Shown here in pieces: positions 12,695 to 62,976 of a DNA stretch of 64,000 nt. Each line of letters starts with the position of its first letter. Positions within the stretch are counted from its first letter, which is position 1. Location: the IMG/VR virus record IMGVR_UViG_3300029288_006769, positions 250,367 through 314,366 of that record. One strand, given 5' to 3'. The translations under genes were made by a program, and so were the position numbers. Under the pieces are notes generated by a model. It searched no databases. It saw nothing but the letters and a program-made list of their open reading frames with translations, and was not told where the DNA came from. This stretch comes from a virus.

Positions 12695-12696
12695 CT

Positions 12697-14740: not shown

Positions 14741-14830
14741 TGCTCTCCCCGACTACAAAGGTCAATGAGCATTTTGAAGAGAATGTAGTCTTGCGTGTTA
14801 TAATAGAATGGGTAATAAAAACATTAGAAA

Positions 14831-25321: not shown

Positions 25322-25333
25322 TAAAACTCTCCC

Positions 25334-27174: not shown

Positions 27175-27177
27175 AAT

Positions 27178-32000: not shown

Positions 32001-32535
32001 AAGCGTTTTTCGTCACTGATAATTGTCCTAAAATTTTCATTGCTTTAAAACTAAAAGAATATTCAAGATTAAAAGGCATCGATGCATCTTCAGTATATGT
32101 AAAAGATTCAAAATAACCATCATATTGATTGCCGTCATATATCATTATTACAATTCCTAAACTTGCTATTTTTGAAGGATTTGCTCTTGCGGCTGCATTC
32201 AAATTTATACCTGAAAAGTATCCTTTGCCATTATTTTTGTAGATGTTTAATAATGACATGAAATATTGGTAAGCTTCTGTTTGTCTTGATTTTTGTGTTG
32301 TCAAACCCTCTTCACTATCTACAAACATTGCAGTTTTACCCGAGGCTGACAATGTAGTTAAACTTTCACCCCAGTACTCATGTGCAAAACCTCCAAGTGT
32401 TCTTGTTTCCGTAATAAGTGGTGAATAAGTGATATCAAGATTTGATGGATTTATAAGCATTGTCAAAGAAGGAATTTTAGCATCACCTCTGATACTCCAT
32501 GAAATGGGAACAGGTACCTGTTTTGCAGTTTTCAT
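31993..32535 (-). CDS. Tail tube initiator/baseplate-tube-like protein, paralog B (180 aa)
   Basis: See paralog A. Overlaps the tape measure stop by 4 nt. Confidence 0.55.
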   Translation of the reverse strand: MKTAKQVPVPISWSIRGDAKIPSLTMLINPSNLDITYSPLITETRTLGGFAHEYWGESLTTLSASGKTAMFVDSEEGLTTQKSRQTEAYQYFMSLLNIYKNNGKGYFSGINLNAAARANPSKIASLGIVIMIYDGNQYDGYFESFTYTEDASMPFNLEYSFSFKAMKILGQLSVTKNAYV

Positions 32536-38454: not shown

Positions 38455-39072
38455 TTATACTACTTGACCAGAAGCATTACCTCTCATCGAGCCTTTATTA
38501 CTTTCATAGAAATCTGTCGACTTATATGCATCTTTATTTGCATATACATCAGAAATCTGGCAAGTCATATCCTGTGTAACTGATGTTGCACCAATATCAA
38601 AAGTCTTTGCAAAATCTGACATCCAGCAACCTTCATACCATGTTTTGATAACTTTTACATCACCGTCATCGGTTGCTCCAGCCTTTGCTTGTCCTTTGAT
38701 ATAATCAGGAATAAGAATCGTCTCATAGACATCAAACGGCCATTGATGATGTTTTAGAGAGCGAATCATACCTGAACTTCCAGCTTTATAACCAAAAAGC
38801 TGTTGAATATCTCTGAGATACATCATCATGACTGTTGCTGTGGCTGAAAGATCAGTTACACCAACTGCAAGTTCAGCTATCTGATCCCCAAAACCGATGC
38901 CACGTACTGGTTCGACAGCTCTTGTGTCAGTCGGGTTCCAAGTCTGAATCAATCCTATTGGTTGAACAGCTTGGTCATCTGCATCAATGCTAAATACACG
39001 TACTCTTTGGGGATTCAAGAGCCGAGTATTTGGCGACACACCTTCTCTATAAATATACGCTTGTCTTGCCAT
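38455..39072 (-). CDS. Tail tube protein (205 aa)
   Basis: Immediately downstream of the sheath gene, with the size and beta-rich composition typical of contractile-tail tube proteins. AAGGAG SD. Confidence 0.6.
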   Translation of the reverse strand: MARQAYIYREGVSPNTRLLNPQRVRVFSIDADDQAVQPIGLIQTWNPTDTRAVEPVRGIGFGDQIAELAVGVTDLSATATVMMMYLRDIQQLFGYKAGSSGMIRSLKHHQWPFDVYETILIPDYIKGQAKAGATDDGDVKVIKTWYEGCWMSDFAKTFDIGATSVTQDMTCQISDVYANKDAYKSTDFYESNKGSMRGNASGQVV

Positions 39073-48686: not shown

Positions 48687-49763
48687 TTATGCATAAAACT
48701 GTAAAGCATTCAATAAGCACCCTTTTGCAACTGCATTGAGTGGATCTGATGCCTTTTTTACTTGTTTAATTGAGAATGGTAATTTTTTCGTCTTTATTTC
48801 TTGCTCAAAAAGTTTATCAAAATTAACAGCTTTAGATGTTCCACCACTAACGACAACAGATATAGATTCTGGAAAATTAGGAATATCTGTCATAGAAGCA
48901 AATTTCTTTTCGATAGCATCACAAGTATAATTAATCAAATTTTCATAATAAATCTTTATTGCAGTCTCTTCTCTATTCTTTGAGTTCAATAAATCAACAC
49001 CAGCTTCTTTAAGCATAGTAATTCTTGAACTCTTAACTCCAACAGCTTGAGCAGCATTTTGATCAATCCAATCCCCTGAACGTGCAAGACAAAATTGATA
49101 TTTTTTATCAGAGACACCGTATAAAGAAAGAGCAAGATTGATTGAACCCGCACCAAATGATAAAGCTAACCCTGTAAATTGTTCTTCCTCAAGTTCTGAC
49201 CACACGATAGCAAATGCTTCATTGAGTGGCTCAGCATTATATCCAAATGATTTCAAAAATGACATAAGTACATTGCCATGATAAACATTATTGAAATCAC
49301 TGTCAATAGGATCAGCAGGAATCGAGAAATAAAGCTTCTCATTTTCTTCTATAGGGTCTCCCACAAGATTCTTCAAAATAATCTTTATAATTGACAAAGC
49401 TTCCGTTTCTCTAGAAGAAAGTACACCTTTAGAAAAGGGTCGACGTGATTCTTTGCTAAAGAAATTTGCTACATGCAAAGCTTCATCACCAAGAACATAG
49501 AGATTTCGTTTGTCAGAACTTTCAGCAAAACTGGCACCAAGTTTTGTAAGCATATTTTTTGAAATCGCATTGTTTTCTAGATCTAGAAAAGCATTTCTTT
49601 GACTCTTGAATATAATACCATTATCTGAGTAAAAAGAACTAACAGCAAAACCTGTACCACAATCTAGGCCTACACCTTTTTTTCTAGCAATTTTTGTGTC
49701 TTCCATTATTCGTCTTTTTCTTCTTTCTGGCTCTGAACCTTCTTTTTCAAGTTGGACATCCAT
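48687..49763 (-). CDS. Actin-like ATPase (ASKHA superfamily; MreB/ParM/FtsA-like, 358 aa)
   Basis: Phosphate-1 'VGLDCGTGFAVSS'. MreB-like 'VLGDEALHV...RPFSKGVLSS' (compare 'vGeeA...RPlkdGVIaD'). Phosphate-2 'LSFGAGSINLAL'. Adenosine motif 'VVVSGGTSKAVNFDKLFEQEI'. Confidence 0.75.
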   Translation of the reverse strand: MDVQLEKEGSEPERRKRRIMEDTKIARKKGVGLDCGTGFAVSSFYSDNGIIFKSQRNAFLDLENNAISKNMLTKLGASFAESSDKRNLYVLGDEALHVANFFSKESRRPFSKGVLSSRETEALSIIKIILKNLVGDPIEENEKLYFSIPADPIDSDFNNVYHGNVLMSFLKSFGYNAEPLNEAFAIVWSELEEEQFTGLALSFGAGSINLALSLYGVSDKKYQFCLARSGDWIDQNAAQAVGVKSSRITMLKEAGVDLLNSKNREETAIKIYYENLINYTCDAIEKKFASMTDIPNFPESISVVVSGGTSKAVNFDKLFEQEIKTKKLPFSIKQVKKASDPLNAVAKGCLLNALQFYA

Positions 49764-49984: not shown

Positions 49985-50634
49985 TTGTTTTCTCTTTGTT
50001 GTTTAATCCGCTTCATCTTTTCAAGCGAATTTGTAAGATCATTTTTTTGAACTTCTACATTACCTGTTTTACTCATATTCGCTGTCATTCCCACTTCTTC
50101 GTCTTTGAATTCGACAAAGATATTATCTGAACTATTAATATCTATCCTTTTTTCAGATACTTGTGGTACAATTAGTTGTTCTACTTTAATATTGTCTTTT
50201 ATTTCGGCAACCATTTCCTTCGCAAGTTCTCTAGCAATATCTTTTACGATAGTGCTGTTTTTTATCATTTCTTCAGCCATTGCTTTAGCCATATTTTTTG
50301 CAATTTCTAACACATCTGACTCTAGCACTTTTTCATTTCCTGTTTTATTATTTTGAGCTGATATAGCTCTCTTAAGCATGGCTCTATCATACACGATCTC
50401 GACCCAATTTCGATTTATTGCATTTTGCAAATCTTTTGAACGATTAACTTCATATTCATTAAGAATTACTTCTTTACCACATTCAACGACTTTACCAATA
50501 TCATTAAGTCGAACAGCAGTAAGTATTTTCCCTTTAATTATCATGATGATCTCGGGTTCCCGTTTTATAACTGGTTTCCATATATGTCTCATTAAATGTT
50601 GCTGAAAGCTCATGAACCATCTTTTCAAACACAT
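49981..50634 (-). CDS. Hypothetical coiled-coil protein (217 aa)
   Basis: Operon context. K/E-rich helical C-terminus. Confidence 0.5.
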   Translation of the reverse strand: MCLKRWFMSFQQHLMRHIWKPVIKREPEIIMIIKGKILTAVRLNDIGKVVECGKEVILNEYEVNRSKDLQNAINRNWVEIVYDRAMLKRAISAQNNKTGNEKVLESDVLEIAKNMAKAMAEEMIKNSTIVKDIARELAKEMVAEIKDNIKVEQLIVPQVSEKRIDINSSDNIFVEFKDEEVGMTANMSKTGNVEVQKNDLTNSLEKMKRIKQQRENK

Positions 50635-50646
50635 GTTCTAGCACTT

Positions 50647-51009
50647 TTAGATTAGTTTGCTTATCGAATCTTGAATCTTTTTCCCAGCTTGTTCTTGTGT
50701 TCTCTCCATAGCTTTCTCTATTCCTGTTGTAGAGAACTGTTGAGCTGTAATTTCTTCATTCAACAATTCTACAGGAATATTTTCAAGACCTTTGAGAACT
50801 TGCTTATTTGCAATATCTTCAGTTTTTAAATTTTCTATTTTAGGTTCTACAACAAAATTGATAGTATTATTTTTAATACTATAAGACACATCAGCTTCTT
50901 GCCCTCGTTTCTTTAACTCTGATCTTATATTGTCTGCGCCCTTGATTGCAATAGAGCGTATTTTAAAATCAAATTTCTTTTTTAAGAGTTTTTTGCTCGG
51001 GCTTAACAT
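50647..51009 (-). CDS. Hypothetical protein (120 aa)
   Basis: Operon context. Confidence 0.5.
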   Translation of the reverse strand: MLSPSKKLLKKKFDFKIRSIAIKGADNIRSELKKRGQEADVSYSIKNNTINFVVEPKIENLKTEDIANKQVLKGLENIPVELLNEEITAQQFSTTGIEKAMERTQEQAGKKIQDSISKLI

Positions 51010-51016
51010 TTACTTC

Positions 51017-54000
51017 TTATTTTATAAATTTTTTAGAAAACTGCCTTGTTTCAAGCAATTTATTTACAATAGATAGATTAGATTTTGCTATATCAAAATT
51101 TGGATTAACAGATAATGCGCTCTTAAACATAAAAATAGCTTTTTGAAAACTATTTTTATTTGCAAGATCTATACCTTTGTCATTGTAAGCAACTTCTAAT
51201 AAACCCCAAGACTTTGTTTCTTCTGTATTTATTCTCAAGCATTTTTCTAAAATACTAATAGCTTCATCGTTTTTTTTGAGAACATTACAACAATGACTAA
51301 AATCGGCCATAGTTTTTAAATCATCAGTCTTATAAACAATCTTTCTAAAAGCAAAATATGCATCTTCAATACGATTTTGTTTTGCATAGCAGATACCAAG
51401 ATGTTTAACAGCATACTCTGTTTCTTTTATCTTTATAGATTCTAAAAAATATTTTTCAGCTTGTTCATAATCTTCTATGAGATTATAGGTTGTTCCCAAA
51501 TGCGCAAGAACATCTTCATTCTCAGGTTCAAGTTCTAATAATCTGCGCCAAGTCACTAGAGCTTCATCGGGATTATTCAAAACTAAATATTGGGTCCCAA
51601 GTTCAAAAAGAGCTTTCGTGTCATTAAATGTTTCAGCCTTTTTCTTGCTAAGTTTTAAATATGTTTCGTTTTTTGAAGAATTAAGCTTTGAATAATGGTG
51701 AATTGGAATAGCAGACATTTCGATATCAATTCCGAGTTCTTCAATAGATTTTTCTACCAATTCATGTATTTCACCCCTAAACTTTATATTTTTATTCGTA
51801 GGAAATAAACGAATTTTATCTGATCTACACCAACCTATGTAACCTTTTTCTTCTTGCTCATATTCTCCGGTATTTGTATTGATTCCTTCAACATTTTTTG
51901 AATTCACATAATTTCTCGTAATGAATCCATAAGCTTTAGATGATGCTTGTAAATTTTTTCTCAATTCATCAATATCTTTCTCACTAATCATTTCGTCAGC
52001 ATCCAAAACTAATGTCCAGGGTTGTGTTGCTTTTTCAAGTGAAAAATTTCGAGCAGCTGAAAAATCATCAATCCATGCAAAATGATAAATCTTAGCTCCG
52101 TATTGTTTTGCAATTTTTATTGTGTTGTCTGTAGATCCTGTATCAACTATTATAATCTCATTTGCTACATTTTTTATAGACTCTAAACACCTTCCCAGGC
52201 AATCTTGTTCATTTTTGACAATCATACAAACAGAAAGTTGCTCTTTTCCCTGGCACAAATAGTTTGAATAGAGCCTATGTAGAACGGTCTCTAGTTTGTC
52301 AATGCTTTTATACCATAGGAATTCATTAGCAGTTTTTAAACCTTCTTCTATTAAACGAGAATAAATAGTCTCATTTAAAAAAAGCAATTTTAAAGAACTA
52401 CAAATAGCCCCAGAATTTTTAGGTGGAACAATTAATGCGTTTTGACCATGTACAGCATAATCATTCACTCCTCCGCAATCTGTAGTTATGACAGGGGTTC
52501 CACTTGCCATTGCTTCTAATGGAGGAAGACTGAACCCTTCGACTTCAAATGGTGCATTTACAACTACATCACAAGAAGCGTATACATTTGCAATTTCAAT
52601 CTGCGTCATATTCGACATATTATAAAATTCGTAAGGCTCATCTTTAGAACATTTTTCAGAAGCTAAACGAACTATTGCACATTTAGAAATCTTCAAATAA
52701 TTTGTTGCACCTTCTAATGCGATTTTTACTCCCTTAAACACTAAATTATAATTGCCCACAATAAGAATTCTTGGGAGTTTATTTCTTTCATGTTTTCTCA
52801 AAGAAAAAACATACTGATCAATTCCATTAGGTATGTAATGTGATTCTGTTTCAAATTTTTTATCAATAATAGATTTCAAATATTTAGAAATAACAATTTT
52901 CTCTTTTATCTTCAAATAATTGTTATTCACAGCATCAACTATTGTTGCGTCCAAATCTTTATCATATATCAAAGCTTCATAACCTTGACAAAAATGAATC
53001 TTTATTTTTGCTTTAATTTTTTGTAATATGTCTAATGTAGAAAAATAAGTACCAATTGCTATATCTACTTCTGGAATTTCTGTATATTCTTTAAAACAAG
53101 AAACTGATACGTCTAAATCAAACCAGGGCTTTGATGTATTAGAATAACACCAGATAGATACATCATATCCTCTTGATTTTAAACGATTTGCATACTCAAA
53201 TACGACTTTGACTCCGCCACTGGGTTGATTTGAAGCTAAAATGTATATGATGGAAAATTTATCTTTTTTCTCATTTATTTTCTGTATTCTTGAAGAATCA
53301 TACCATTTTTGAAGATACAGTTTTTTGCTTTGTTCTAAAGTTTCTTCGAAAAAACCTTCTTTTTCTTGAAAAGATTTACTACCAAAATGGTAAATAAAAA
53401 CGCCTTTAGAACATATTAATTTATAACCATTCTCTATGAAACGATTACAAAGATCATCATCTTCAAAATTGAAAATAAATCTATCATCAAAAAAACCTAC
53501 CTGATTTAAGAGCTCTCTTTTTGTTACAAAACAAAATCCGATAAGTTTATTTGCTTCTACTACATCATCTCCAAAATTTGCATATTGTTTTTGAGAAAAC
53601 AGACGAATTTCGTTATCATTTACCTCAGCTTTAAAATTATAATTTTGTCCAACTTTTTGAATTTCTGATGATGTATAATTAGTGACTGGCCCAATAATAC
53701 CTGCATTATTTTCTTCAAGCAAATTTATTAATCTTAACAACCAATTTGATGTAACAACAGTATCGCTGTTCAAAAAACAGACATATTTAGAATTTGATTT
53801 TCTAAGAGCTTGATTATTTGCATAACCGAACCCAAAATTTTTAGAATTGTATATTATTTCAATATTTTTTAAAGACATTAAATACATTTTTGTAGCATTA
53901 TCGGAGCAATTATCTACTATGATAAGTCTATAATTTGCTGTATTTCTTATTATGCTTTCAACACATTTTTGCAAGTAAGGAAGAGCATTATGTGTAATTA

Positions 54001-54838
54001 AGACAATATCACAATCATAAGTAACTTGAGCTTCATTATACTCAAGACTTAAAATTTTTGATCTTAGATAATCTAAAGCTTTTGCAGCTATTACACCATT
54101 TTGTTGTATAAGTCTTTGTCCCCATTTTTTCAAAAGCGTAGGATACGAATATTTGACGAGAACATCTCTTTTCCCTTTATATGATTGATTCGAGCGATGA
54201 TAAACATAAACATCATCAGCTATTGCAAGTTTATAACCTCTTTGTCTTATTTTCAAGACATAATCGTCTTCACTACCATAATGTGGAAAAACTCTTGTAT
54301 CTAATAAACCTATGACTTTTATAATGTTATATGAAATAAAAAAACAAAATCCATTTACGAAAGCTGTTTCTGGGTATCTTCTTTCTGATAACGATGTCAC
54401 CCAATTGCCATAAGTATCTATTTCTGTATCATTGACACAAGATTTACCTACAGATTGTGTTGTTGCACAATTTGACAAAACACCCATACAACCAATCTGT
54501 TTATGACTTGCCCAATAAGTCGTAATCTTTTCTAACCAATTTTGTGTAACAATTTGAGTATCAGAATTTAACAAACATACATATTCGAAATTCTTGCTTT
54601 CTAAAATCCCTTGATTACAACTCTCTGTGAATCCCTTTGAAACAGGATTTTTAATGTATTTTTGTACTATTTTGCTATCAAAAAGTAACTGACAAAAATT
54701 AGAAGTTTCAAGATCAGAACCATCGTTAATTAAGACTATTTGAAAATCTTTGGTGTTAGACTTTTCGAGAATTGTTTTGACACATTTTTCAAGCAATTCC
54801 CACTGATTGTGTACTGGTATGATGATTGAGACAGCCAT
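51017..54838 (-). CDS. Multidomain glycosyltransferase (1273 aa): GT2 - GT2 - GT4 - GT2 followed by C-terminal TPR repeats
   Basis: GT2 #1 'SIIIPVHN...IVLINDGSD...GSEDDYVLKIRQRGYKL'. GT2 #2 'DIVLITHN...LIIVDNCSDNA...NFEDDDLCNRFIENGYKL'. GT4 'EGFSLPPLEAMASGTPVITTDCGG'. GT2 #3 'LSVCMIVKNEQDCLGRCLESI...EIIIVDTGSTDNT...DDFSAARN...LVLDADE'. The tail region matches the TPR 34-mer pattern. Confidence 0.85.
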   Translation of the reverse strand: MAVSIIIPVHNQWELLEKCVKTILEKSNTKDFQIVLINDGSDLETSNFCQLLFDSKIVQKYIKNPVSKGFTESCNQGILESKNFEYVCLLNSDTQIVTQNWLEKITTYWASHKQIGCMGVLSNCATTQSVGKSCVNDTEIDTYGNWVTSLSERRYPETAFVNGFCFFISYNIIKVIGLLDTRVFPHYGSEDDYVLKIRQRGYKLAIADDVYVYHRSNQSYKGKRDVLVKYSYPTLLKKWGQRLIQQNGVIAAKALDYLRSKILSLEYNEAQVTYDCDIVLITHNALPYLQKCVESIIRNTANYRLIIVDNCSDNATKMYLMSLKNIEIIYNSKNFGFGYANNQALRKSNSKYVCFLNSDTVVTSNWLLRLINLLEENNAGIIGPVTNYTSSEIQKVGQNYNFKAEVNDNEIRLFSQKQYANFGDDVVEANKLIGFCFVTKRELLNQVGFFDDRFIFNFEDDDLCNRFIENGYKLICSKGVFIYHFGSKSFQEKEGFFEETLEQSKKLYLQKWYDSSRIQKINEKKDKFSIIYILASNQPSGGVKVVFEYANRLKSRGYDVSIWCYSNTSKPWFDLDVSVSCFKEYTEIPEVDIAIGTYFSTLDILQKIKAKIKIHFCQGYEALIYDKDLDATIVDAVNNNYLKIKEKIVISKYLKSIIDKKFETESHYIPNGIDQYVFSLRKHERNKLPRILIVGNYNLVFKGVKIALEGATNYLKISKCAIVRLASEKCSKDEPYEFYNMSNMTQIEIANVYASCDVVVNAPFEVEGFSLPPLEAMASGTPVITTDCGGVNDYAVHGQNALIVPPKNSGAICSSLKLLFLNETIYSRLIEEGLKTANEFLWYKSIDKLETVLHRLYSNYLCQGKEQLSVCMIVKNEQDCLGRCLESIKNVANEIIIVDTGSTDNTIKIAKQYGAKIYHFAWIDDFSAARNFSLEKATQPWTLVLDADEMISEKDIDELRKNLQASSKAYGFITRNYVNSKNVEGINTNTGEYEQEEKGYIGWCRSDKIRLFPTNKNIKFRGEIHELVEKSIEELGIDIEMSAIPIHHYSKLNSSKNETYLKLSKKKAETFNDTKALFELGTQYLVLNNPDEALVTWRRLLELEPENEDVLAHLGTTYNLIEDYEQAEKYFLESIKIKETEYAVKHLGICYAKQNRIEDAYFAFRKIVYKTDDLKTMADFSHCCNVLKKNDEAISILEKCLRINTEETKSWGLLEVAYNDKGIDLANKNSFQKAIFMFKSALSVNPNFDIAKSNLSIVNKLLETRQFSKKFIK

Positions 54839-54845
54839 GATGTGT

Positions 54846-55907
54846 TTAAAAAAGCCTTTCTATATTTTCAATTGTTTTTTCCCAAGTGTAATTTGAAATC
54901 ACCTCTTCTATATTTCTTTGAAACATAGTTGCAAACTCTGTATTATTTAAAAGCTCTTTAGATTTTCTTAAAATATCTTGTTTATTTTTCTTTTCAGCTA
55001 TAAGACAAGTTTTTTTATCAAAAAAAACATCATCAAAAGCTCCATCACAAATGACAGAAGGGCATCCACATAATGTCGATTCTATAGGGGTTAAATTAAG
55101 ACCCTCGGAAATCGATGGCATAATAAAAATAGAACACTTATTAAAAATTTCTCTTATTGTATCTTTATTTGCATCTACATATTTGGCTATAAGTTTTTCA
55201 GGATGTTTTGCGTTTTCAAACCCCGAACTTGTACCAAAAACTATTGTTCCATCAATTAAACCTTGGTTGCACAAATCATTACAGATTTCAACACCAAGTG
55301 CATATTGTTTATCTGGAGCATAATGATACAGTAATGAAGCATATCTTTGTCTTTTAATCGCCTTATCTCTGAAAAAATAATTTTGCGAATCCGATCCAAA
55401 ACCTACACAAGCACATTTTCCTCCTTCTGCTTCTATAGCTTTTTTGATTTTTAAAGTGCTTGACATGACAGTTAATTTCGGGTTGAATACATTTTTTCTT
55501 TCTCTTTCGAAACACATACCATAACTTAGCATATAAATCAAAACTTTTTTGACTTGAGGAAGATTTGTAAGATACTCTGTGTAAGGATTGTCTGAATATG
55601 TGATCACTACATCAGATGCAGGAAATGTTTGGTCAGGTAATCCCACTGTGTATGGAAGAGGCAACACTTTCGAGTAGTCTAAATTAGGATTTAAAGTTTG
55701 AATCCTAAGTTGCACTTGATATTTTTTTTTTAATCCCCTTGACAATGCCATTGACAACTGTTTCATATGTTGAATCCCTCCACTTGTTTCCACATATTTA
55801 GGGATTTCAACGACAAACAGATTGCTAAATTTTCTAGCTAAAGTTGTCTGCCGCATTATGCCACCGCTCTCATTATTGAACACAGGAAGTTCTACTACAA
55901 TCGTCAT
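54846..55907 (-). CDS. GT4-family (GT-B, retaining-type) glycosyltransferase (353 aa)
   Basis: 'MPSISEGLNLTPIESTLCGCPSVICD' (E-x7-E motif). Confidence 0.7.
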   Translation of the reverse strand: MTIVVELPVFNNESGGIMRQTTLARKFSNLFVVEIPKYVETSGGIQHMKQLSMALSRGLKKKYQVQLRIQTLNPNLDYSKVLPLPYTVGLPDQTFPASDVVITYSDNPYTEYLTNLPQVKKVLIYMLSYGMCFERERKNVFNPKLTVMSSTLKIKKAIEAEGGKCACVGFGSDSQNYFFRDKAIKRQRYASLLYHYAPDKQYALGVEICNDLCNQGLIDGTIVFGTSSGFENAKHPEKLIAKYVDANKDTIREIFNKCSIFIMPSISEGLNLTPIESTLCGCPSVICDGAFDDVFFDKKTCLIAEKKNKQDILRKSKELLNNTEFATMFQRNIEEVISNYTWEKTIENIERLF

Positions 55908-56467
55908 TCTTTTTTCCTACAAGTTATTGCAACATTTTCAAAATCTAAAAAATCTTTTTTTAAATTATTTTCTAAACAAGTTGCATCTATATCCTTGTCG
56001 GTTATTTCAATCCAATTCCAGATTTTTCCTATCATGACATTTTCAAAATACTCCATATCCTTTGCATAATCATGTGCCAAAATATAATCGCCTGGTTTTA
56101 AAAATTTTGAAAAAATGCTAAATTCTTTAATTTTGTTTCCACCATCACAAAAAACAACACTTGTTCCTTCATTCTTTATCAAGTTTTGGATTACATCAAT
56201 ACTCTCAAAAACATCAGCAATTCTATGATCAATATTTAAACGTACAAACAGTTTATTGTTTTCAGTTAGTTTTTTAATGTCAAATGTAACAAACTGACAA
56301 TCATAAGCAATTGCATACATTTGAAACAATATAGAAAGGCCTCCATAATATGTTCCAATTTCTATGATAGTCTTTGGCTTTACAGCAAGTAAAAATTCAT
56401 TTAGAACTTTTGGAATATTTTCATTCTGTGCAAGATTAAAGCCTAAAAATTCGAAACTCACATTCAT
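55904..56467 (-). CDS. SAM-dependent O-methyltransferase (TylF/MycF/CmcI-like class I MTase, 187 aa)
   Basis: 'TIIEIGTYYGGLSILF' (motif I) ... 'VVFCDGGNKIKEF'. Confidence 0.6.
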   Translation of the reverse strand: MNVSFEFLGFNLAQNENIPKVLNEFLLAVKPKTIIEIGTYYGGLSILFQMYAIAYDCQFVTFDIKKLTENNKLFVRLNIDHRIADVFESIDVIQNLIKNEGTSVVFCDGGNKIKEFSIFSKFLKPGDYILAHDYAKDMEYFENVMIGKIWNWIEITDKDIDATCLENNLKKDFLDFENVAITCRKKE

Positions 56468-56510
56468 AGCTACTCCTTGTCAAAGCAATCAAAGCAATGT
56501 TCGAATTAAA

Positions 56511-57068
56511 TTAATCTTTTCTCAAAACCCAACAATTTCCTCTAACAATATATTTTTTATTTAATTTTTCACAAAATTCATCAATCGCTTGTTTTACAGG
56601 AGGGTGTGAAAAATCATGCCCTGCCATAGTTCCACCTACACAAATCTTAGGCCACCAACAATTTAGATCTCTTCTAACGGCATCCAAACTATGATCGGCA
56701 TCAATAAAAACAAAATCTATTGTATTGTCTAAGAAATAACTTGCTCCTAAATGACTGAGTGATTTTATAACAATTAGATCTTTCCAAATTGGTTCTAGAT
56801 TTTTTCGAAATAAATCTAATTGTGGATATGTAGTGATTTCATTACCATTATGAGCATTCCCTATGAAAGCATCAATGCTTATTACAGTTAGATTTTTTTG
56901 CGAATTTATAGCTTCAACAGCTAAAAATGCTATACTTTGGCCTATCCATGAACCTACTTCTATAAGAATGCCATTTTGTCTGCTCTGTTTTATTGCATCT
57001 TCATAAACATCTTGGAAATTAAACATAGTTTGTTGAGGAGAACAAATTGTTTCATAAAAATGTTTCAT
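56511..57068 (-). CDS. Class I SAM-dependent methyltransferase (sugar O-MTase-like, 185 aa)
   Basis: 'ILIEVGSWIGQSIAFLA' ... 'FVFIDADHSLDAVRRDL'. Confidence 0.7.
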   Translation of the reverse strand: MKHFYETICSPQQTMFNFQDVYEDAIKQSRQNGILIEVGSWIGQSIAFLAVEAINSQKNLTVISIDAFIGNAHNGNEITTYPQLDLFRKNLEPIWKDLIVIKSLSHLGASYFLDNTIDFVFIDADHSLDAVRRDLNCWWPKICVGGTMAGHDFSHPPVKQAIDEFCEKLNKKYIVRGNCWVLRKD

Positions 57069-57075
57069 ACTTGTT

Positions 57076-57852
57076 TCACACCTTGTAAGTTGTTTTTATT
57101 GTTGTTGGACTACAATTAGGTCCTCGAGTGTCTTTACCAGCAAAAACATCAAATACAGAACCAATGTCTACTGCTACACCACCTTGATTTTTCCAAAACA
57201 GACCATATATTTTTCCGACAAAACCTGAGCCATATAATAACAACTTTCCCTTTAGATCTCCCAAATTTTTTATAATTTGTTGTATTTCAAGAAATCTATC
57301 AGGATAATGTTTACTTCTATATCTTTTTTCTTCAAACATCATTTCCGGAGGTACTGGAATAAATTGTACATTAGTTATATTGAATCTCTTTGAAAATTGT
57401 CGAGCTAAATCTCTACAACTTATAATGTATAAATCTTGTCTATTTAAAAGCAATTTATCATAACAAGATTCTCTTGATTCCCAATTTCTCAAAAATTCAT
57501 AATGAAAATCTATCGACCCAAAATCTGTAGTTTTAATATTGCAATAAATTTTTAGAATATTTAAACTTTCGGTCCAGCAACTTCCAAGACTAAGATGATA
57601 TTCTGTAGGAATTCCTAACAAATCGGCATTGTTTATAGTCTCAATTAAATTTTTTCTTATTTCTTCTATAGATTCTTTTTTTAGAATCTCATTTAATTGT
57701 CTACTAAAAATATGTTCAACAATATTTTTTTCATTGTTCTTTAAAAGTATTGCTTCACCATCACCATATCTTAATGCTAGAAATGATCTATTTTCATTTA
57801 AGCTAGTTATTATTTTTAAAAATACTTGATTGAAATCATTATTGATATTCAT
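57076..57852 (-). CDS. Possible GT-D (DUF1792-like) glycosyltransferase (258 aa)
   Basis: 'LALRYGDGE' near the N-terminus resembles the R-x-GDGE motif I recall from DUF1792/GT-D enzymes. Embedded among GT and MTase genes. Low certainty. Confidence 0.4.
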   Translation of the reverse strand: MNINNDFNQVFLKIITSLNENRSFLALRYGDGEAILLKNNEKNIVEHIFSRQLNEILKKESIEEIRKNLIETINNADLLGIPTEYHLSLGSCWTESLNILKIYCNIKTTDFGSIDFHYEFLRNWESRESCYDKLLLNRQDLYIISCRDLARQFSKRFNITNVQFIPVPPEMMFEEKRYRSKHYPDRFLEIQQIIKNLGDLKGKLLLYGSGFVGKIYGLFWKNQGGVAVDIGSVFDVFAGKDTRGPNCSPTTIKTTYKV

Positions 57853-58507
57853 ATCTCGACAATTCTTGAAAATTCTGACAATTTACATTAATAAGACAAT
57901 ATGTTTCTCTATATACATCTTTAAATTGAATTAATTCTTTTGCTCCCAATTTTTCACTATAAACAATAGTATCTACAGGTGAACAAATCGGAACTATTTC
58001 ATTAGAACTTGAATCATTTATTTTATATAAGCTCCCTATCTTTGCTTCAAATTTTAATTCTTCAGTAATTTTTTTTAACATTTCCGTTGTTACATTTGTA
58101 GGATGTCCTATCCAATCTGTCCATGTCAACTTAAACCCTAAAGAAGCAAGGTATTTAATTTTATCGAAACATGGGACTTTAATAAAGATGAATTCTGTAG
58201 CAGCTTTAACAGATTTTTCTAATACGTTTTTAACTTGTGCTTCATTTTTTAAATGTTCAAGAAAATGAAGCATTGTTATAAATCTACATTTAGGAATTTC
58301 ACAACTTACATCAGTAATATCAGCAAAAACTACATTATAACCTTTTTCTCTTGCTCTTTCAAGTTCGCTTTTCCTATTGTCAATACCTAAAAATGTTTCT
58401 CCACCAAATCTAGATTTTGCCCATCCTATAGACCCACCCACACCACAACCCAAATCGACACAATCTAGCATTATATTTCCTTTAGCAAAAATTAAACAAA
58501 TTTTCAA
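57839..58507 (-). CDS. Class I SAM-dependent methyltransferase (222 aa)
   Basis: 'LDCVDLGCGVGGSIGWA' (motif I) followed by acidic motif II/III positions. Confidence 0.65.
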   Translation of the reverse strand: MKICLIFAKGNIMLDCVDLGCGVGGSIGWAKSRFGGETFLGIDNRKSELERAREKGYNVVFADITDVSCEIPKCRFITMLHFLEHLKNEAQVKNVLEKSVKAATEFIFIKVPCFDKIKYLASLGFKLTWTDWIGHPTNVTTEMLKKITEELKFEAKIGSLYKINDSSSNEIVPICSPVDTIVYSEKLGAKELIQFKDVYRETYCLINVNCQNFQELSRYEYQ

Positions 58508-58827
58508 ATATTATGATGTAGCTGTTTTGACATATCTGGTAAAGAAATATTGTACATTGGGCGTCTAGAATACAAATCATCCATCTCAAAAACATACAAA
58601 TCTCTTGCTCTATTTCTAGCATGCAAATGTCTCATAGGTCTGAAATCTTCATAAATCCTGTTTTCAACAGGTTGTCCCTCGCTTTTATCAGAACCTCTAG
58701 GTACAATACTATCTACTTTTTGCTGAATTCGAACGGCATCGGGAGAATCTTTCGACAATTCAACAAATTCTTTACGAAGAGGACCACGTCTATAAGTAGC
58801 TGTTGGAGCAATTACTAAATTATCCAT
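58504..58827 (-). CDS. Hypothetical protein (107 aa)
   Basis: Operon context. 4-nt overlap with the downstream MTase gene. Confidence 0.45.
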   Translation of the reverse strand: MDNLVIAPTATYRRGPLRKEFVELSKDSPDAVRIQQKVDSIVPRGSDKSEGQPVENRIYEDFRPMRHLHARNRARDLYVFEMDDLYSRRPMYNISLPDMSKQLHHNI

Positions 58828-58868
58828 AAATTCCTTTAGTCAATTTGGGGACTTGCTCCCTCAAATAA

Positions 58869-59456
58869 TTAAGCCCAAATTCTTGTAAAAGGTCGATCAA
58901 ATAAATGTATTCTTCCTTTTGAATCTTTTCTCGGATTATCTTTATAATAAACATCTTGAAAAGTTCCTGATGTCTGCTTGTAAAGATAATGAATGAATTT
59001 CGCATAAGTATGAGCATTTGCATACCTGCTTGCAGGGTCTCTTATAGTTCTCAACATGGGTCTTACTGTAGACTTAAATGTTGCTTCTGGATTTACTGCC
59101 TTAGGGTCAAACCAAGCACCCAAATTCATTCCTTGATCAACAAGGTATTTGTCAGCTTCTAATTGAGGTTTCTCCACATCAGCCAAAAGATTCCTTTTCC
59201 TTGTACGCCATAAATTCAACATGTCATTGTTGAGAGTTAAAGTCATAGGAATTGTGGTTTCATTAATAGTATAGCCGCCTCTAACCGTAGGGTATTCTCT
59301 TTGAAAATTATTGAAAGTATCTTGTTCAGAAACAAATTGTGGAAGCGGCACTCCAGGATACTTTCTTGTAACATCAAACTGATCTCTTTCGACATTAGAA
59401 AATCTTTGACTTTTTCTTGCTGGATCAGCTATTACAATACCATGTAAAGTTGCCAT
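58869..59456 (-). CDS. Hypothetical protein (195 aa)
   Basis: Long ORF. Candidate promoter and AAAGGAA SD upstream. Confidence 0.5.
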   Translation of the reverse strand: MATLHGIVIADPARKSQRFSNVERDQFDVTRKYPGVPLPQFVSEQDTFNNFQREYPTVRGGYTINETTIPMTLTLNNDMLNLWRTRKRNLLADVEKPQLEADKYLVDQGMNLGAWFDPKAVNPEATFKSTVRPMLRTIRDPASRYANAHTYAKFIHYLYKQTSGTFQDVYYKDNPRKDSKGRIHLFDRPFTRIWA

Positions 59457-59485
59457 AATGATATTCCTTTCATTTCAATTTCGAA

Positions 59486-59515
59486 ATTATAAACATATAA
59501 CAAAAAATGTCACAA
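59486..59515 (-). promoter_or_regulatory. Candidate sigma-A-type promoter (TTGTGA - 18 nt - TATAAT) in the 61-bp intergenic region upstream of 58869..59456
   Basis: rc of 59457-59517 reads tgTTGTGAcattttttgttatatgtt TATAAT ttcg. The -10 hexamer is perfect. Confidence 0.35.
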
Positions 59516-59517
59516 CA

Positions 59518-62259
59518 TCAATAATTTATGTTCTCGAAAACTATACTTCTACCTTTTACTATATGATCTACATTTGAATTTTCATGCGAAACAAAATCCT
59601 CACTTGTATGCAACTCTTCTCTTTCTTTAGGGCTATCTACTGTCGCAACATTCGGGCCACCATGCAGAACATGCTTACTGCTCTTGTCGATCCCAGGTTG
59701 CATGATCTGATTAGGTAATATCACTTTAAATTTATGCCTTACATCAGTTCCATCAAGAACTTCAACAACAAAATGTTGTTGTGCTCTTACTCCACCAGGA
59801 CCTTCTACTGGAGTTATCGGCCCTATCAAACATCTATCACCATTTCTTCGAATTATCATGTCTCTTTGATTGACTATAGGACTTGGTCCTGTCCATGTTT
59901 CGATCTGATATGCTAATTTTAAGCCCCTATCAGTTTGTTGCACTCTTTGTTCTGTTGTCAAGGGACCTATAAGTATTGGGAATGGTCCATCAAATCCACC
60001 AACGAAACCCGAACCAAAACAAATTTCGCAATCTTGATCCGGTTGTTTATGAGTTCTTTCTTTAACATCTCTATAAGTACAAGCACATTTTACCCCTGCT
60101 TTTTTCTTTAAATAAAGCAAAACACGTTCTCCACCCTGTTCAAGCATCCATGCGTTTCTACGCACACACTCTTCTAAAATATACGTCATCTTGTCAGGCT
60201 GCAAAACCATTGGCGTTAATAAATCTAAATCAGTCTCGTCCTCGCTCGTTACGCACGTTACCTTATAAAAATAGTTCTTCCTTAACCGTATATCAATTGT
60301 GTTAGAAGGTACTCTATATGACACGAGCACTATTGAATATTCATTTGGTACAGGTGGCTCGAACCATTGTTTTTTTACTTCATCATATTGTCTTTTTGTT
60401 TCAAGTTCTATCACGCCTTCTAAACCTTGAAGTAAACGTACATAAGCTTGCCGTCCATCAATTGTTACGTTTACGAACTCTGATTTATCCGTAGGTGTAT
60501 TTTTACCTGAATCATCTATCACAGGTCGTTGGGACAAATAGATCAAATATTCTTTTTTAGGGTTCAAAGGTTGTATAATAATTGGATTTCCAGAAACCAC
60601 AACAAATTCTGAAAATCTAAACTCAATTTGCTTGTCACCTGAGACACCACAAAGTTCTATGTGTAATTCATCAGAATATCTATCAAACACACCAAGTTGT
60701 ATAAAATTCTGAGTCAAATGGTCAAAGAAATATGTTGTAATTATCTCTCCAACTCTTATGATTCTAAATTCTCCTGTTACATCACTAGAAGGAATTGTAG
60801 TTGGTATCTCTTGATTACCATTAACGTATTGAACAGAACTATATACTTCAGATAATCTCGACATTGCTCTAGAAATTTCGACACTATTCTGTTCGTCTTT
60901 TCGAACAATGAATTTGCAAGCTTGTATTCCAATATCGGGTGCAATCCAAGTAGAAAAATCAAACTTTATCTTTATTTCAAAATTTCCTCTAAGTTTATAT
61001 TTTGACACAAGTCTTGATGTCTGTTTCAAACCCACACTATCTTTGAAAATCACACCATCATACTGAAACAACATTTCGGCAGGATCTATTTCATCCCATT
61101 TTGCAGCATCAAATATTTCAGTAGAACTAAAATCATCATTCACATCATTACTAATGCTTACAGTTCTTCTAAACTGTTCACTCACATCTTCATTTACAAT
61201 CCGACTATCAAGATTTTTGTCAAGATATTGAGTAATTGCTATAGTGCTAGAATTAAGTTTTTGAAACGGGCCTATTTCTGAATCAGCTCTATAGATGTTA
61301 TATCCAATTACTTGATTATAAACCGGATACATATCGTCCCAACGAATATGTAGTTCACTTTGATTGAAAGGGCAGGACACAAAAACATTTGTAGGAATAT
61401 AATTGTTTTTAGCTATTTCAACATTATAGATTTCGGTATGAGTTGTCTCGACATTACCGATTTCATCAATAGCAAAAAATTTTATTGTTGTTCTTCTATT
61501 ATCTCTTACTCTTATTGGTGTTGCATAAACCAATGATGCTGTTGTCGGCTCAGTACCATTAATTGTATAGTAGATAATCGCTTTTGGATCGTCTACAGAA
61601 AGTACTATTTCTTGAGAAGTAAAAAATGAACCACCAGAAGGTGCAGCACTTGAAATTGGAGCAATCGAATCTATCTCGTAATTTTCTATTATTATTTCGG
61701 AATATGAATTGGAAACAAATGCAATTGCTTTTAATGTTGTTGTTCCTTGATTTGTTATAGAGAGTGGAGCGACATAAGTATCGGAATATAATGTAGGTGT
61801 TGAGCCATCTAAAGTAAAAAAAACTACAGCTGTCACATCTGTCGTAAGTGTTACAGATATAGCAGAATTAAAAAGACGTCCATGAGGAGCAGCTGTAACT
61901 ATAGGTGGCTGAATACTTGGATCTGGTATTGTTAAAAACTCGTAATCACTTTCACCTGTTGCTCCATGTAGATCATTAATTTCAACATGAACAGAAACAA
62001 TCTGACTATAATTAAAGTGAGCGATCTGATAAATATTTATGCTGACTGAATTCGGTACAGAATTTTCGTTTATTATTGTACCTTCAAAACCCGTTTGAAA
62101 CACGCCATTTACTATTGCAGGAACCGTAGCAATAGAAACATTCAATGTTGCAACATCAACACCATGTATATCTTGTGCTCTTAAAAATATTGGGACATCT
62201 AATTTTGCTCCAATATAACCTTGAGCTGGGCTAAAATCTAAAAAAGTTGGATTAGACAT
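59518..62259 (-). CDS. Virion structural protein (913 aa) with two CHB_HEX_C-like Ig domains, an 'NEDVSEQF' module and a C-terminal Cys-rich zinc-binding region
   Basis: 'AVVFFTLDGSTPTLYSDTYVAPLSI...TLKAIAF' and 'AIIYYTINGTEPTTASLVYATPIRV'. 'NEDVSEQFRRT'. 'CACTYRD...DCEICFGSG'. Confidence 0.7.
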   Translation of the reverse strand: MSNPTFLDFSPAQGYIGAKLDVPIFLRAQDIHGVDVATLNVSIATVPAIVNGVFQTGFEGTIINENSVPNSVSINIYQIAHFNYSQIVSVHVEINDLHGATGESDYEFLTIPDPSIQPPIVTAAPHGRLFNSAISVTLTTDVTAVVFFTLDGSTPTLYSDTYVAPLSITNQGTTTLKAIAFVSNSYSEIIIENYEIDSIAPISSAAPSGGSFFTSQEIVLSVDDPKAIIYYTINGTEPTTASLVYATPIRVRDNRRTTIKFFAIDEIGNVETTHTEIYNVEIAKNNYIPTNVFVSCPFNQSELHIRWDDMYPVYNQVIGYNIYRADSEIGPFQKLNSSTIAITQYLDKNLDSRIVNEDVSEQFRRTVSISNDVNDDFSSTEIFDAAKWDEIDPAEMLFQYDGVIFKDSVGLKQTSRLVSKYKLRGNFEIKIKFDFSTWIAPDIGIQACKFIVRKDEQNSVEISRAMSRLSEVYSSVQYVNGNQEIPTTIPSSDVTGEFRIIRVGEIITTYFFDHLTQNFIQLGVFDRYSDELHIELCGVSGDKQIEFRFSEFVVVSGNPIIIQPLNPKKEYLIYLSQRPVIDDSGKNTPTDKSEFVNVTIDGRQAYVRLLQGLEGVIELETKRQYDEVKKQWFEPPVPNEYSIVLVSYRVPSNTIDIRLRKNYFYKVTCVTSEDETDLDLLTPMVLQPDKMTYILEECVRRNAWMLEQGGERVLLYLKKKAGVKCACTYRDVKERTHKQPDQDCEICFGSGFVGGFDGPFPILIGPLTTEQRVQQTDRGLKLAYQIETWTGPSPIVNQRDMIIRRNGDRCLIGPITPVEGPGGVRAQQHFVVEVLDGTDVRHKFKVILPNQIMQPGIDKSSKHVLHGGPNVATVDSPKEREELHTSEDFVSHENSNVDHIVKGRSIVFENINY

Positions 62260-62644
62260 ATTTTTCTTCTAATTCTTGTATTTCATCAGCAACTTTTGCA
62301 ACTAATTTCTTTGCAATTTCTTTTTTGATTTCTAGCCAATCAATTTTAAAACTATGGTCATCGATATAATAGTCAGCATACACCTTTGACGAAGTTTGAA
62401 AATCTATACTCGGTATATTCTGATTCGCAATATCATAATGGATCTCATTGTCTTTCAAAAAGCTTGTTGCTTGTTTAAACATCTCACCACTACGACAAGT
62501 CCAAAGAATTATATAGCAACCTTTTTCATGTGCCCATTTCAAAACTTCTTTTGCGTTTGGCATAAGTTCTCTGGGCACATAATCTTTTTCGTCTTTTATA
62601 ATTGTGCCGTCAAAATCGATTGCAAGTATGAGTTTCTTCTTCAT
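62252..62644 (-). CDS. HAD-superfamily phosphatase (130 aa)
   Basis: Motif I 'LILAIDFDGTI' (DxDGT). Motif II Thr in 'IILWTCRS'. Motif IV 'YYIDDHSF'. Confidence 0.65.
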   Translation of the reverse strand: MKKKLILAIDFDGTIIKDEKDYVPRELMPNAKEVLKWAHEKGCYIILWTCRSGEMFKQATSFLKDNEIHYDIANQNIPSIDFQTSSKVYADYYIDDHSFKIDWLEIKKEIAKKLVAKVADEIQELEEKYV

Positions 62645-62976
62645 AATTTCACAAATTCAGAAATAATAAGTTCAGCTTTGACTTTTGATTTTGCTGCAGC
62701 TAATGCGTTGCGAATATAATTGATTTTTCCGTCGTACAAATCATTTATTTCTTCAAGAACTTTTTTATATTTGCTCATGTCAAAAAAAGCATAAGACTTA
62801 GGGTTGTGTAAATTCACTTTGTCTGTCAATTCCAAAAATTTCTTTTTTTGACTTTCAGAAAGCGACTCTGCAATATCCATGATTTCTATCTTCATGTTTT
62901 CTCCTTTACAGCACTTTACATAACAAAGGCAAAACAATATTATCAAATTCATTAAAACATAAAAACTTATCTTCAA
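62641..62976 (-). CDS. Small hypothetical protein (111 aa; the start is likely an internal Met near 62898, which avoids a 71-nt overlap with the upstream gene)
   Basis: Operon context. Hydrophobic N-terminus if the full-length form is real. Confidence 0.4.
   Translation of the reverse strand: MKISFYVLMNLIILFCLCYVKCCKGENMKIEIMDIAESLSESQKKKFLELTDKVNLHNPKSYAFFDMSKYKKVLEEINDLYDGKINYIRNALAAAKSKVKAELIISEFVKL

Follow-up and report, generated by a model that had tools for sequence, protein, structure and literature searches.

A flagellin-type glycosyltransferase island in the tail and virion gene block of huge phages: a candidate system for decorating virion proteins

We analysed a 64,000-nucleotide (nt) stretch of viral DNA, referred to here as the window (IMG/VR record IMGVR_UViG_3300029288_006769, positions 250,367 to 314,366), in which six consecutive minus-strand open reading frames (ORFs) at 51017-58507 (58471 by the gene caller's start) form an island of carbohydrate-tailoring genes inside the tail and virion gene block of a huge phage. 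Its principal product is a protein of 1273 amino acids (aa) in which several glycosyltransferase (GT) domains are fused to an array of tetratricopeptide repeats (TPRs). The most likely function of the island is to attach sugars to a protein, which is probably the phage's own. With moderate confidence, we read it as a flagellin-type O-glycosylation system that has been domesticated, works in the cytoplasm, and puts a methylated glycan, variable from strain to strain, on virion proteins.

Architecture and conservation of the core enzyme

The original prediction described the large protein as an enzyme with four GT domains and TPRs, and Pfam bore this out. Glycos_transf_2 matched at 7e-68 in three stretches (domains 1, 2, and 4 in Table 1), and Glycos_transf_1/Glyco_trans_1_4 matched at 1e-16 with residues 689-834 as the best stretch; PF13704 covered residues 875-956, and TPR_1/2/8/12 matched the C-terminal array. 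In the orthologue from one related phage (L010) domain 3 also gave a WsaF_C-like match.

Orthologues of the core enzyme fall into at least 20 clusters with 48-73% identity, and the catalytic motifs are invariant or nearly so across 18-20 of them. Full-length orthologues range from 983 to 1832 aa, their lengths being set by variable N-terminal additions, while two shorter entries (810 and 877 aa) come from contigs of less than 5 kb and may be truncated. Domain 1 is one such addition: a GT2 is present there in only some orthologues, and elsewhere other GT domains or nothing take its place. The conserved core comprises residues 276-1273 (about 1000 aa), and no island-bearing phage lacks it. Conservation within it is highest in domain 4 and the TPR array (about 63%). 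We presume domain 4 to be the transferase that initiates the glycan on protein, and the TPR array is the presumed binding module for the acceptor protein.

Flagellin-linked relatives of the core enzyme

In a search of PDB sequences, residues 868-1052 had as their best match with a solved structure GmaR (22ao, 2.3e-25), the O-GlcNAc transferase that modifies flagellin in Listeria, followed by the peptide S-glycosyltransferases SunS (7msp, 1e-13) and ThuS; the TPR array matched OGT and SPINDLY. The nearest non-phage homologues share 41-46% identity over domain 4. In all five of the contexts inspected among the closest metagenomic homologues, Flagellin_N, FlbT, or FlaF genes adjoin, and these contexts are clusters of GTs, methyltransferases, and sugar-synthesis genes.

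A scan of cellular genomes, one per GTDB species, returned more than 594 relatives. Among the best 80 loci, which were examined further, 38 had a flagellin ORF within 10 kb, and each of ten flagellin ORFs sampled was confirmed as Flagellin_N plus Flagellin_C. The 38 flagellin-linked loci are distributed over Nitrospirota, Desulfobacterota, Bacillota, Ignavibacteria, Verrucomicrobiota, Planctomycetota, Gemmatimonadota, and Actinomycetota. The Firmicutes setting given to such enzymes in the original prediction was an assumption and not an observation; the nearest cellular homologues belong to Desulfobacterota and Nitrospirota and not specifically to Firmicutes. The suggestion that the system is directed at protein rather than polysaccharide is supported by a GmaR/SunS-like GT2-TPR enzyme with flagellin-adjacent relatives in cells.

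What is known of these relatives is consistent with such a role. FlmG owes its specificity to a flagellin-binding domain, and the glycosylation of flagellin proceeds in the cytoplasm by sequential steps that need no oligosaccharyltransferase (PMC7591256); the TPRs of GmaR have been proposed to help recognise the substrate (PMC9638930). No flagellin or flagellar Pfam family was detected among the scanned ORFs of the window (ORFs below about 90 aa were mostly unscanned and the ORF at 62641-62976 was matchless) or at the seven other island-bearing phage loci. Some tblastn matches carried the names of Listeria and Enterococcus phages; we rejected these as phage precedents, as the contigs are short, lack annotation, and probably bear GmaR-like genes of the host.

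A fixed insertion site that is empty in a close relative

Using an alignment of the actin-like protein encoded downstream of the island, we recovered 110 viral contigs from IMG/VR and kept 80 loci. A module consisting of the C-terminal homologue of a 913-aa protein, small genes, the actin-like gene, a gene for a 409-aa protein, and the tail sheath gene was conserved throughout these 80 loci. Eight distinct genomes carry the island: the window and the loci labelled here L005/L009, L006/L021, L010/L011, L012, L096, L097, and L098. Its position is identical in all eight. In the order of transcription, the gene for the 913-aa Ig/CHB_HEX_C protein and, further on, a 107-aa gene precede the island, and genes for proteins of 120, 217, and 72 aa, the Volactin-family actin-like protein, the 409-aa protein, a fibre protein, and the sheath follow it.

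In another relative, L019, the homologues of the 107-aa and 120-aa genes lie 2 nt apart, which constitutes an empty site. Several island-bearing phages are no closer to the window than L019 is (59% identity for the actin-like protein, 59% for the sheath, and 49% for the 913-aa protein). Because so close a relative does without it, the island is dispensable for making the virion, and it would therefore decorate rather than build the particle. The gap between the flank markers is 9.75 kb in the window compared to 1.4 kb in the island-less phage LR745208.1; in 63 more remote relatives that have both markers it is 1.0-5.5 kb (median 1.96 kb), with no island homologue.

Gene content agrees with the earlier description of a cassette embedded in the tail and virion block and co-oriented with it: all substantial ORFs of the window are on the minus strand. 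Neighbouring ORFs of the island overlap by 4-14 nt or are separated by gaps of 7-43 nt. A promoter and terminator scan gave counts equal to the shuffled expectation. A promoter-like GTGACA-16-TATAAT at 59513-59486, upstream of a 195-aa gene, was not relied on.

Several neighbours were considered as parts of the system and rejected. The HAD phosphatase gene at 62252-62644, which the original prediction counted in, is real (Hydrolase_3, 24.8 bits against a cut-off of 20.9) but is not an island member; it has homologues in the island-less L019 and L020 and is a backbone gene. The small flanking proteins (195, 107, and 120 aa) were candidates for island-specific acceptors or chaperones until jackhmmer found homologues of them in L019. 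Nor does the CHB_HEX_C extension of the 913-aa protein co-occur with the island, as L019 retains the full-length protein.

The 913-aa protein itself (59518-62259, minus strand) is unusual in its construction. AlphaFold is confident only for residues 1-560, which form Ig-like, two CHB_HEX_C, Fn3, and ConA-like (lectin/glucanase) beta-sandwich domains. The C-terminal third has a predicted local distance difference test score (pLDDT) below 50 and is strongly conserved, containing the invariant motif C-x-C...C-x-x-C G-x-G-F-V-G-G; no other part of the protein is conserved across the whole clade, and orthologue P0183 contains intein/Hint domains. A PDB profile search with the protein gave nothing useful.

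A retained core among exchanged accessory genes

The GT2-GT4-GT2-TPR core of about 1000 aa is the only gene common to the eight islands, and the accessory sets differ. The window adds a GT4, two sugar-type methyltransferases, a GT-D, and a generic methyltransferase. L005 has a GT4, four methyltransferase-like genes, a DegT fragment, an ATP-grasp gene, a radical-SAM/SPASM gene, and a GT11, while L006 has only a 273-aa GT2. L010 carries a GT-D, a GT4, a second GT2-TPR, a methyltransferase, and a kinase-like gene. A methyltransferase is combined with a radical-SAM gene in L012 and L098 and with a hexapeptide acyltransferase in L097; L096 has a GT4, with a TnpB-like gene nearby. The accessory enzymes are exchanged among related phages while the initiating core is retained, as in the glycosylation loci for flagellin and serine-rich adhesins.

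The TnpB-like gene of L096 (TnpB/Cas12f-like, Cas12f1-like_TNB; 6750-7841) occupies the same hot spot together with DUF4116 genes, just upstream of the island, and hints at a route of cargo exchange at the insertion site.

Core identity to the window is 63, 59, 51, and 51% in L010, L005, L006, and L012, compared to 75, 66, 51, and 51% for the 409-aa protein. For the core and the 913-aa protein the corresponding pairs are 59/67% in L098, 50/57% in L096, and 54/53% in L097. Because core identity tracks that of backbone genes, the island is an old resident that was lost in some lineages and not as a recent bacterial insert. The earlier analysis had noted that homologues confined to capsular polysaccharide or lipopolysaccharide (LPS) loci would point to such an insert; instead, we found relatives in flagellin loci and co-divergence of the core with its phages in at least eight genomes. 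In all eight, the GC content of the island is 1-6 points below that of its flanks.

Enzyme assignments within the island

The hidden Markov model searches proposed with the original prediction were run. The ORFs and Pfam matches confirmed six consecutive carbohydrate-tailoring genes (Table 1), Pfam supporting the GT and methyltransferase assignments and the predicted fold settling that of the GT-D. The separate GT4 scored above the Glycos_transf_1 cut-off and has the EX7E motif; it is shared with L005, L010, and L096 and is not present in every island-bearing phage. Three proteins were correctly recognised as class I S-adenosylmethionine (SAM) methyltransferases, two of them of the CmcI/TylF type, on the Pfam evidence; that they methylate oxygen was an assumption, not an observation. 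For the generic methyltransferase the gene caller prefers a start at 58471 (210 aa) over the TTG at 58507, and the L005 orthologue is fused to a longer protein. NCBIfam gave nothing above its curated cut-offs for the island proteins.

The 258-aa protein had been called a possible GT-D, and Foldseek of its AlphaFold model established this. Its Pfam score is 24.9 bits against a cut-off of 27 (PF22882), and NF040628 scores 16 against 75; PF22882 is carried by most of its 38 homologues. The alignment-based model has a pLDDT of 95, and its sole PDB matches at E<=0.001 were three DUF1792 GT-D structures, 4pfx, 4phr, and 5v4a (E 3e-7 to 5e-6, TM-score 0.57, probability 1.00). PDB sequence searches with this protein, by single sequence and by profile, gave no match. 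In the alignment of 38 sequences R28, G30, D31, and E33 are invariant and G32 is nearly so (>=90%). Zhang et al. in 2014 reportedly described an acidic metal-binding D-x-E motif near the N-terminus of GT-D enzymes, and the window protein has a matching motif.

A GT-D homologue (36% identity) was also seen in a different phage-like contig (L179, GCA_034680565.1 JAXOUH010021695.1) that encodes a holin, an M15 endolysin, and PKD giant proteins. Its own glycan cluster (10001-17533) further includes NUDIX, two Methyltransf_21, DegT, RmlD-like epimerase, TOD1_MUCI70, Methyltransf_24, and Stealth genes; methylated-glycan cassettes may accordingly be more widespread among large phages.

Transmembrane-like segments are absent from all six island proteins: averaged over 19 residues, Kyte-Doolittle hydropathy peaks at 1.64, at one position. 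Pfam detected no Wzx, Wzy, ABC transporter, polyprenyl-phosphate priming transferase, or oligosaccharyltransferase in the window's island, nor were these export and lipid-priming families present in the accessory genes scanned or listed at the seven other island loci. The window's island also contains no nucleotide-sugar synthesis genes. PADLOC found no defence-system family, and weak Pfam "GT4-conflict" matches were dismissed as not meaningful.

Table 1. Positions of the island genes, the domains of the core enzyme, the flanking genes, and tail genes in the window
Feature	Position	Strand	Evidence or remark
Core multi-domain glycosyltransferase, 1273 aa (GT2/GT2/GT4/GmaR-like GT2/TPR)	51017..54838	-	Pfam, PDB search
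Core domain 1, GT2, residues 3-219	54182..54832	-	variable N-terminal add-on
Core domain 2, GT2, residues 278-490	53369..54007	-	NSDT and EDDD conserved in all or nearly all orthologues (one NPDT)
Core domain 3, GT-B/GT4, about residues 525-850	52289..53266	-	invariant EX7E motif VEGFSL..LE
Core domain 4, GmaR/SunS-like GT2, residues 868-1052	51683..52237	-	DTGS and DADE invariant; most conserved domain (63%)
Core TPR array, residues 1075-1260	51059..51616	-	62.5% mean identity across orthologues
Stand-alone GT4, 353 aa	54846..55907	-	Glycos_transf_1, 42.7 bits (cut-off 26.4); EX7E at E268-E276
CmcI/rhamnosyl-O-methyltransferase-family methyltransferase, 187 aa	55904..56467	-	RMNT_CmcI, 30.2 bits (cut-off 23.2); CmcI 2bm8, 6.5e-3
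Methyltransf_24 (TylF-like class I) methyltransferase, 185 aa	56511..57068	-	52.3 bits (cut-off 26.3); 6g7d, 1e-4
GT-D (DUF1792-like) glycosyltransferase, 258 aa	57076..57852	-	fold; invariant R-x-G-D-G-E motif
Generic class I SAM methyltransferase, 222 aa from TTG	57839..58507	-	Methyltransf_25/11 above cut-off; motif I VDLGCGVGG
107-aa backbone gene, upstream flank of the insertion site	58504..58827	-	homologue L019 8558-8848
120-aa backbone gene, downstream flank	50647..51009	-	homologue L019 8851-9339; in all island-bearing loci
Tail sheath	39168-41885	-	phrog_2839, 2.5e-29
Tape-measure-like protein	32532-36233	-	
Sheath initiator and Baseplate_J (baseplate wedge phrog_6)	12697-14187, 9503-12694	-	

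Proposed mechanism and the nature of the acceptor

From the position of the island, its apparent co-transcription with the block, the cytoplasmic location of its products, and the lack of export machinery, we infer that the acceptor is a virion protein. Soluble enzymes without export or lipid-carrier parts, a protein-type transferase with TPRs, and tight packing in the late block together argue for modification of a protein made at the same time and in the same place. In the sequence of events that we propose, the island, which leaves no room for control regions of its own, would be co-transcribed with the late virion and tail genes. By homology to GmaR, FlmG, and OGT, the cytoplasmic TPR array would bind a folded or nascent phage structural protein and the GmaR-like domain would add a first sugar to Ser/Thr from a host nucleotide-sugar. 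The remaining GT domains, the GT4, and the GT-D could then lengthen the chain sugar by sugar, and the three SAM methyltransferases would cap or tailor the sugars. Incorporation of the modified protein into the virion would give the particle a strain-specific methylated glycan coat.

A further, more tentative proposal concerns how this came about. A huge-phage lineage may have domesticated a flagellin-glycosylation system at a single hot spot in its virion block, keeping the TPR-transferase while the elongating and methylating enzymes were shuffled, such that a strain-specific methylated O-glycan on a structural protein makes the island a viral "serotype" locus, the counterpart of O-antigen or flagellin glycosylation islands. 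If this is true, the glycan might serve to evade recognition by the host or in the environment, or to tune adsorption.

Several points weigh against a virion acceptor. Among the virion proteins of the window, none shows an obvious Ser/Thr-rich tail or flagellin-like domain. The family of the core enzyme acts on flagellin, a host protein, which makes a host target a natural alternative. A dispensable and polymorphic island would also fit superinfection-exclusion or host-modification cassettes, and Iyer et al. read the polymorphic GT clusters of jumbo cyanophages as host modification (PMC7824862). Position is no established hallmark of virion glycosylation because the GT genes of mycobacteriophages lie near the genome end and not among the structural genes (PMC11256854). 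Co-transcription is deduced from gene spacing only, with the promoter and terminator scan at chance level, and the lower GC content of the island may reflect repeated horizontal exchange or merely the composition of enzymes as opposed to structural proteins.

We consider it unlikely that the island glycosylates a host protein, most plausibly flagellin and possibly a pilin or S-layer protein, and so alters the surface of the infected or pseudolysogenic cell, perhaps as a barrier to flagellotropic phages or other competitors or as a way of changing motility. The GT2-TPR family of the core is overwhelmingly flagellin-linked in cells, its characterised member GmaR modifies flagellin, and the island shares an accessory and polymorphic character with many exclusion functions. 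Against this, location in the late tail and virion block with apparent co-transcription would leave little time to export new flagellin, and FlbT, FlaF, and FliS accompany the island at none of the eight phage loci. The TPR array, moreover, ranks among the best-conserved regions of the enzyme in phages that share only about 50% identity, which fits a phage partner better than diverse flagellins. Remodelling of a host envelope glycan (LPS O-antigen, teichoic acid, or capsule) through lipid- or wall-linked intermediates, with prevention of superinfection as the benefit, likewise seems doubtful to us. None of the eight islands encodes a priming phosphoglycosyltransferase, flippase, polymerase, ligase, ABC transporter, or Gtr-type protein, and there are no transmembrane segments, although peripheral GTs need none. 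Pathways for O-antigen and S-layer glycans commonly use GT2 and GT4 domains and CmcI/TylF-type methyltransferases, NCBIfam returned rhamnosyltransferase, TuaG, and EpsD matches (all below cut-off), the L010 orthologue has its WsaF_C match, and the jumbo cyanophages provide a precedent with the same polymorphism argument (PMC7824862). The conserved part of the island, however, is a protein-type GT2-TPR module and not a polysaccharide-type enzyme, its closest cellular contexts are flagellin loci rather than capsule or LPS loci, and it sits in a late operon.

Two other products would involve no protein coat at all, and we regard both as improbable, the second more so than the first. The SunS and ThuS structural relatives, together with below-cut-off NCBIfam matches to the SunS family, MftF, and MftM, and the radical-SAM/SPASM, ATP-grasp, and aminotransferase genes in the islands of relatives, might indicate a glycosylated small molecule or peptide such as a SunS-type glycocin, a mycofactocin-like methylated oligosaccharide cofactor, or another secondary metabolite. 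Yet the NCBIfam scores are far below their cut-offs (81.8 bits against 350 for SunS, TIGR04195; 101 against 280 for MftF), no precursor peptide with a Cys motif, exporter, or thiol-disulfide gene lies nearby, and the small flanking ORFs are backbone genes that island-less L019 has too. Flagellin-locus enzymes are also closer to the core (41-49% identity) than SPbeta YolJ, which is SunS (26.9%). As for hypermodification of phage DNA with a methylated glycan as a protection from restriction, multi-sugar DNA glycosylation by phage GTs is known, as far as the cited accounts go (bioRxiv 10.1101/2023.12.21.572611; cited in PMC12619734). Here, however, no scanned ORF in or beside the island forms hydroxymethyl-pyrimidines or belongs to DNA metabolism, and no enzyme that would make a hydroxymethylated base acceptor was found among the scanned ORFs of the 64-kb window. 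The TPR fusion and flagellin-locus ancestry indicate a protein acceptor, and the island lies in a structural and not a replication module.

Phage identity and gene setting

Genes for a sheath, a tape measure, and a baseplate show that the window is part of a huge contractile-tailed phage (myovirus), and they are accompanied by tail-fibre phrogs and Ig-like giant proteins. A megablast search of positions 50000-60000 against 50,697 phage genomes gave zero matches, and we therefore know of no close cultured relative. PHROGs searches with ten proteins flanking the island gave matches to tail-fibre families only, all with a 1359-aa protein. The virion block also holds the fibre gene at 42630-46709 and, at 38455-39072, a gene for a putative tube protein of 205 aa. 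The closest deposited phage is the 485-kb uncultured phage LR745208.1, and Tunturiibacter phage Tunturi_5 and Bacillus phage G are more remote relatives. Shine-Dalgarno-like AAGGAG motifs precede many genes of the window.

Identical copies of window proteins were found on JAQUND010000005.1 (GCA_028717785.1) and on a 424-kb contig. The former is a metagenome-assembled genome (MAG) named "Candidatus Nanoarchaeia archaeon" at NCBI, as is a second MAG with orthologue P0007. This label is probably a binning artefact in which a huge phage was mis-binned as a DPANN archaeon, because the contig has genes for a tail sheath, a baseplate, and a tape measure, finds its matches among huge phages, and shares its proteins with the 424-kb contig. 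An archaeal host, as the label might suggest, was rejected: the Woesearchaeota and Methanosarcinales MAG loci hold only a GT-TPR gene, without phage genes, and the window has the Shine-Dalgarno-like motifs already mentioned. MAGs of Woesearchaeota, Nanoarchaeota, and Methanosarcinales (L112, L118, L121, L124, L127, L129, L135, and L156) do encode GmaR-like GT2-TPR proteins with 34-39% identity to core domain 4, and neither phage genes nor flagellins adjoin them.

Three observations concern other parts of the window. The actin-like gene at 48687-49763 (minus strand) encodes a Volactin-family protein (PF25216, E 2.9e-74; weak MamK match) within the virion and tail block, and its position is the same in LR745208.1 and in at least 110 viral contigs of IMG/VR, many of them 200-497 kb long. 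A phage actin inside a structural module seems undescribed, as the volactin papers appear, from the titles listed, to deal with haloarchaea. At 25001-28000, amid tail genes, there is a second trough of low GC content (0.28-0.30 compared to about 0.35), which spans 25334-25924 and 25918-27174, the latter encoding a 418-aa protein that is very basic and weakly matches Phage_endo_I and sigma-70 region 4; the trough may be another inserted element. The sheath (39168-41885), the Baseplate_J protein, and the sheath initiator each have a weak DUF2460-like segment (profile positions about 130-180) and cross-match in tblastn, which suggests an inserted domain common to several tail proteins.

Significance

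Phage virions were long assumed to be unglycosylated. Virus-encoded protein glycosylation is by now known and self-glycosylating viruses are not unprecedented; to our knowledge, mycobacteriophages are the only phages demonstrated to glycosylate their own virion with phage-encoded enzymes. New here are the capture of a flagellin-type TPR-transferase, the fusion of four transferases, the fixed hot spot in a virion module, and the strain-to-strain shuffling of tailoring enzymes.

Should the island act as we propose, self-glycosylation would also occur in uncultured huge phages with a wide environmental distribution, and capture of a flagellin O-glycosylation module would be a concrete evolutionary route to it. 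The hypervariable "glycotype" locus would bear on adsorption, particle stability, recognition by defences and grazers, and phage engineering. The core, as a compact, soluble, TPR-targeted glycosylation machine with four predicted activities, is attractive for cytoplasmic glyco-engineering. A phage-borne cassette for flagellin-type glycosylation would be new even with host flagellin or a glycan of the host as its target, and the pair of empty and filled sites (L019 and the window) makes the question directly testable.

Comparison with known systems

The closest parallels are the flagellin glycosylation islands of Listeria (GmaR) and the Caulobacter FlmG class. These share with the huge-phage island a homologous GT2 fused to a TPR array with intact catalytic motifs, a soluble, cytoplasmic, and sequential mode of action without oligosaccharyltransferase, and further GTs and methyltransferases (PMC7591256, PMC9638930). 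They also share a conserved initiating enzyme among variable elaborating enzymes, and the cellular relatives of the core are flagellin-linked. In contrast, the huge-phage island is phage-encoded, at a fixed tail/virion site with no flagellin, FlbT, FlaF, or chaperone gene nearby, and its core fuses two or three extra GT domains and lacks the antirepressor domain of GmaR. The TPRs are C-terminal to the GT in both the huge-phage core and GmaR, whereas the flagellin-binding domain of FlmG is N-terminal. The streptococcal serine-rich repeat (SRR) adhesin system (GtfA/B with a DUF1792 GT-D) resembles the island in having a GT-D beside GT-B and GT-A enzymes and in the stepwise cytoplasmic elongation of an O-glycan on protein; on the other hand, the GT-D enzymes are only 15-16% identical, and the huge-phage island has no GtfA/GtfB pair, accessory Sec system, or SRR substrate.

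Among phages, Che8, Corndog, and Myrna of mycobacteria have been credited with phage-encoded virion glycosylation (Freeman 2023, as cited in PMC12619734 and PMC11256854). According to these accounts, structural proteins are modified in the cytoplasm by a system that is non-essential and present in only some related phages, and we propose the same here. The GT genes of the F1 phages lie near the genome end and not among virion genes (PMC11256854), unlike those of the huge-phage island, which also differs by its flagellin-type TPR-GT, GT-D, and three methyltransferases. No homology to the core was detectable by tblastn in 50,697 phage records: 72 records matched, and none was a Mycobacterium phage. 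Virion glycosylation is demonstrated in mycobacteriophages, whereas for the huge-phage island it is a prediction.

Chloroviruses combine methylation with strain variation: A064R of PBCV-1 includes a sugar methyltransferase and produces methylated rhamnose, the glycan varies between strains, and the capsid glycans are attached without the usual sequon. In the accounts cited, A064R and A111/114R are virus-encoded, cytoplasmic, multi-domain GT proteins (PMC7826918, PMC9614988), as we predict for the core. Chloroviruses differ in being eukaryotic giant viruses with N-linked capsid glycans, as far as that source goes (PMC7826918), and in having no TPR module.

The GT clusters of jumbo cyanophages (Iyer, Anantharaman, Krishnan, Burroughs, and Aravind 2021; PMC7824862) have in common with the huge-phage islands several GT families, sugar-tailoring enzymes, and O-methyltransferases, and they too are sporadic and polymorphic even between close relatives. 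They differ in including nucleotide-sugar synthesis genes and were interpreted as modifying host LPS or capsule (PMC7824862). In the huge-phage islands, by contrast, the element that is conserved is a protein-type GT2-TPR enzyme, and it is located inside the structural block.

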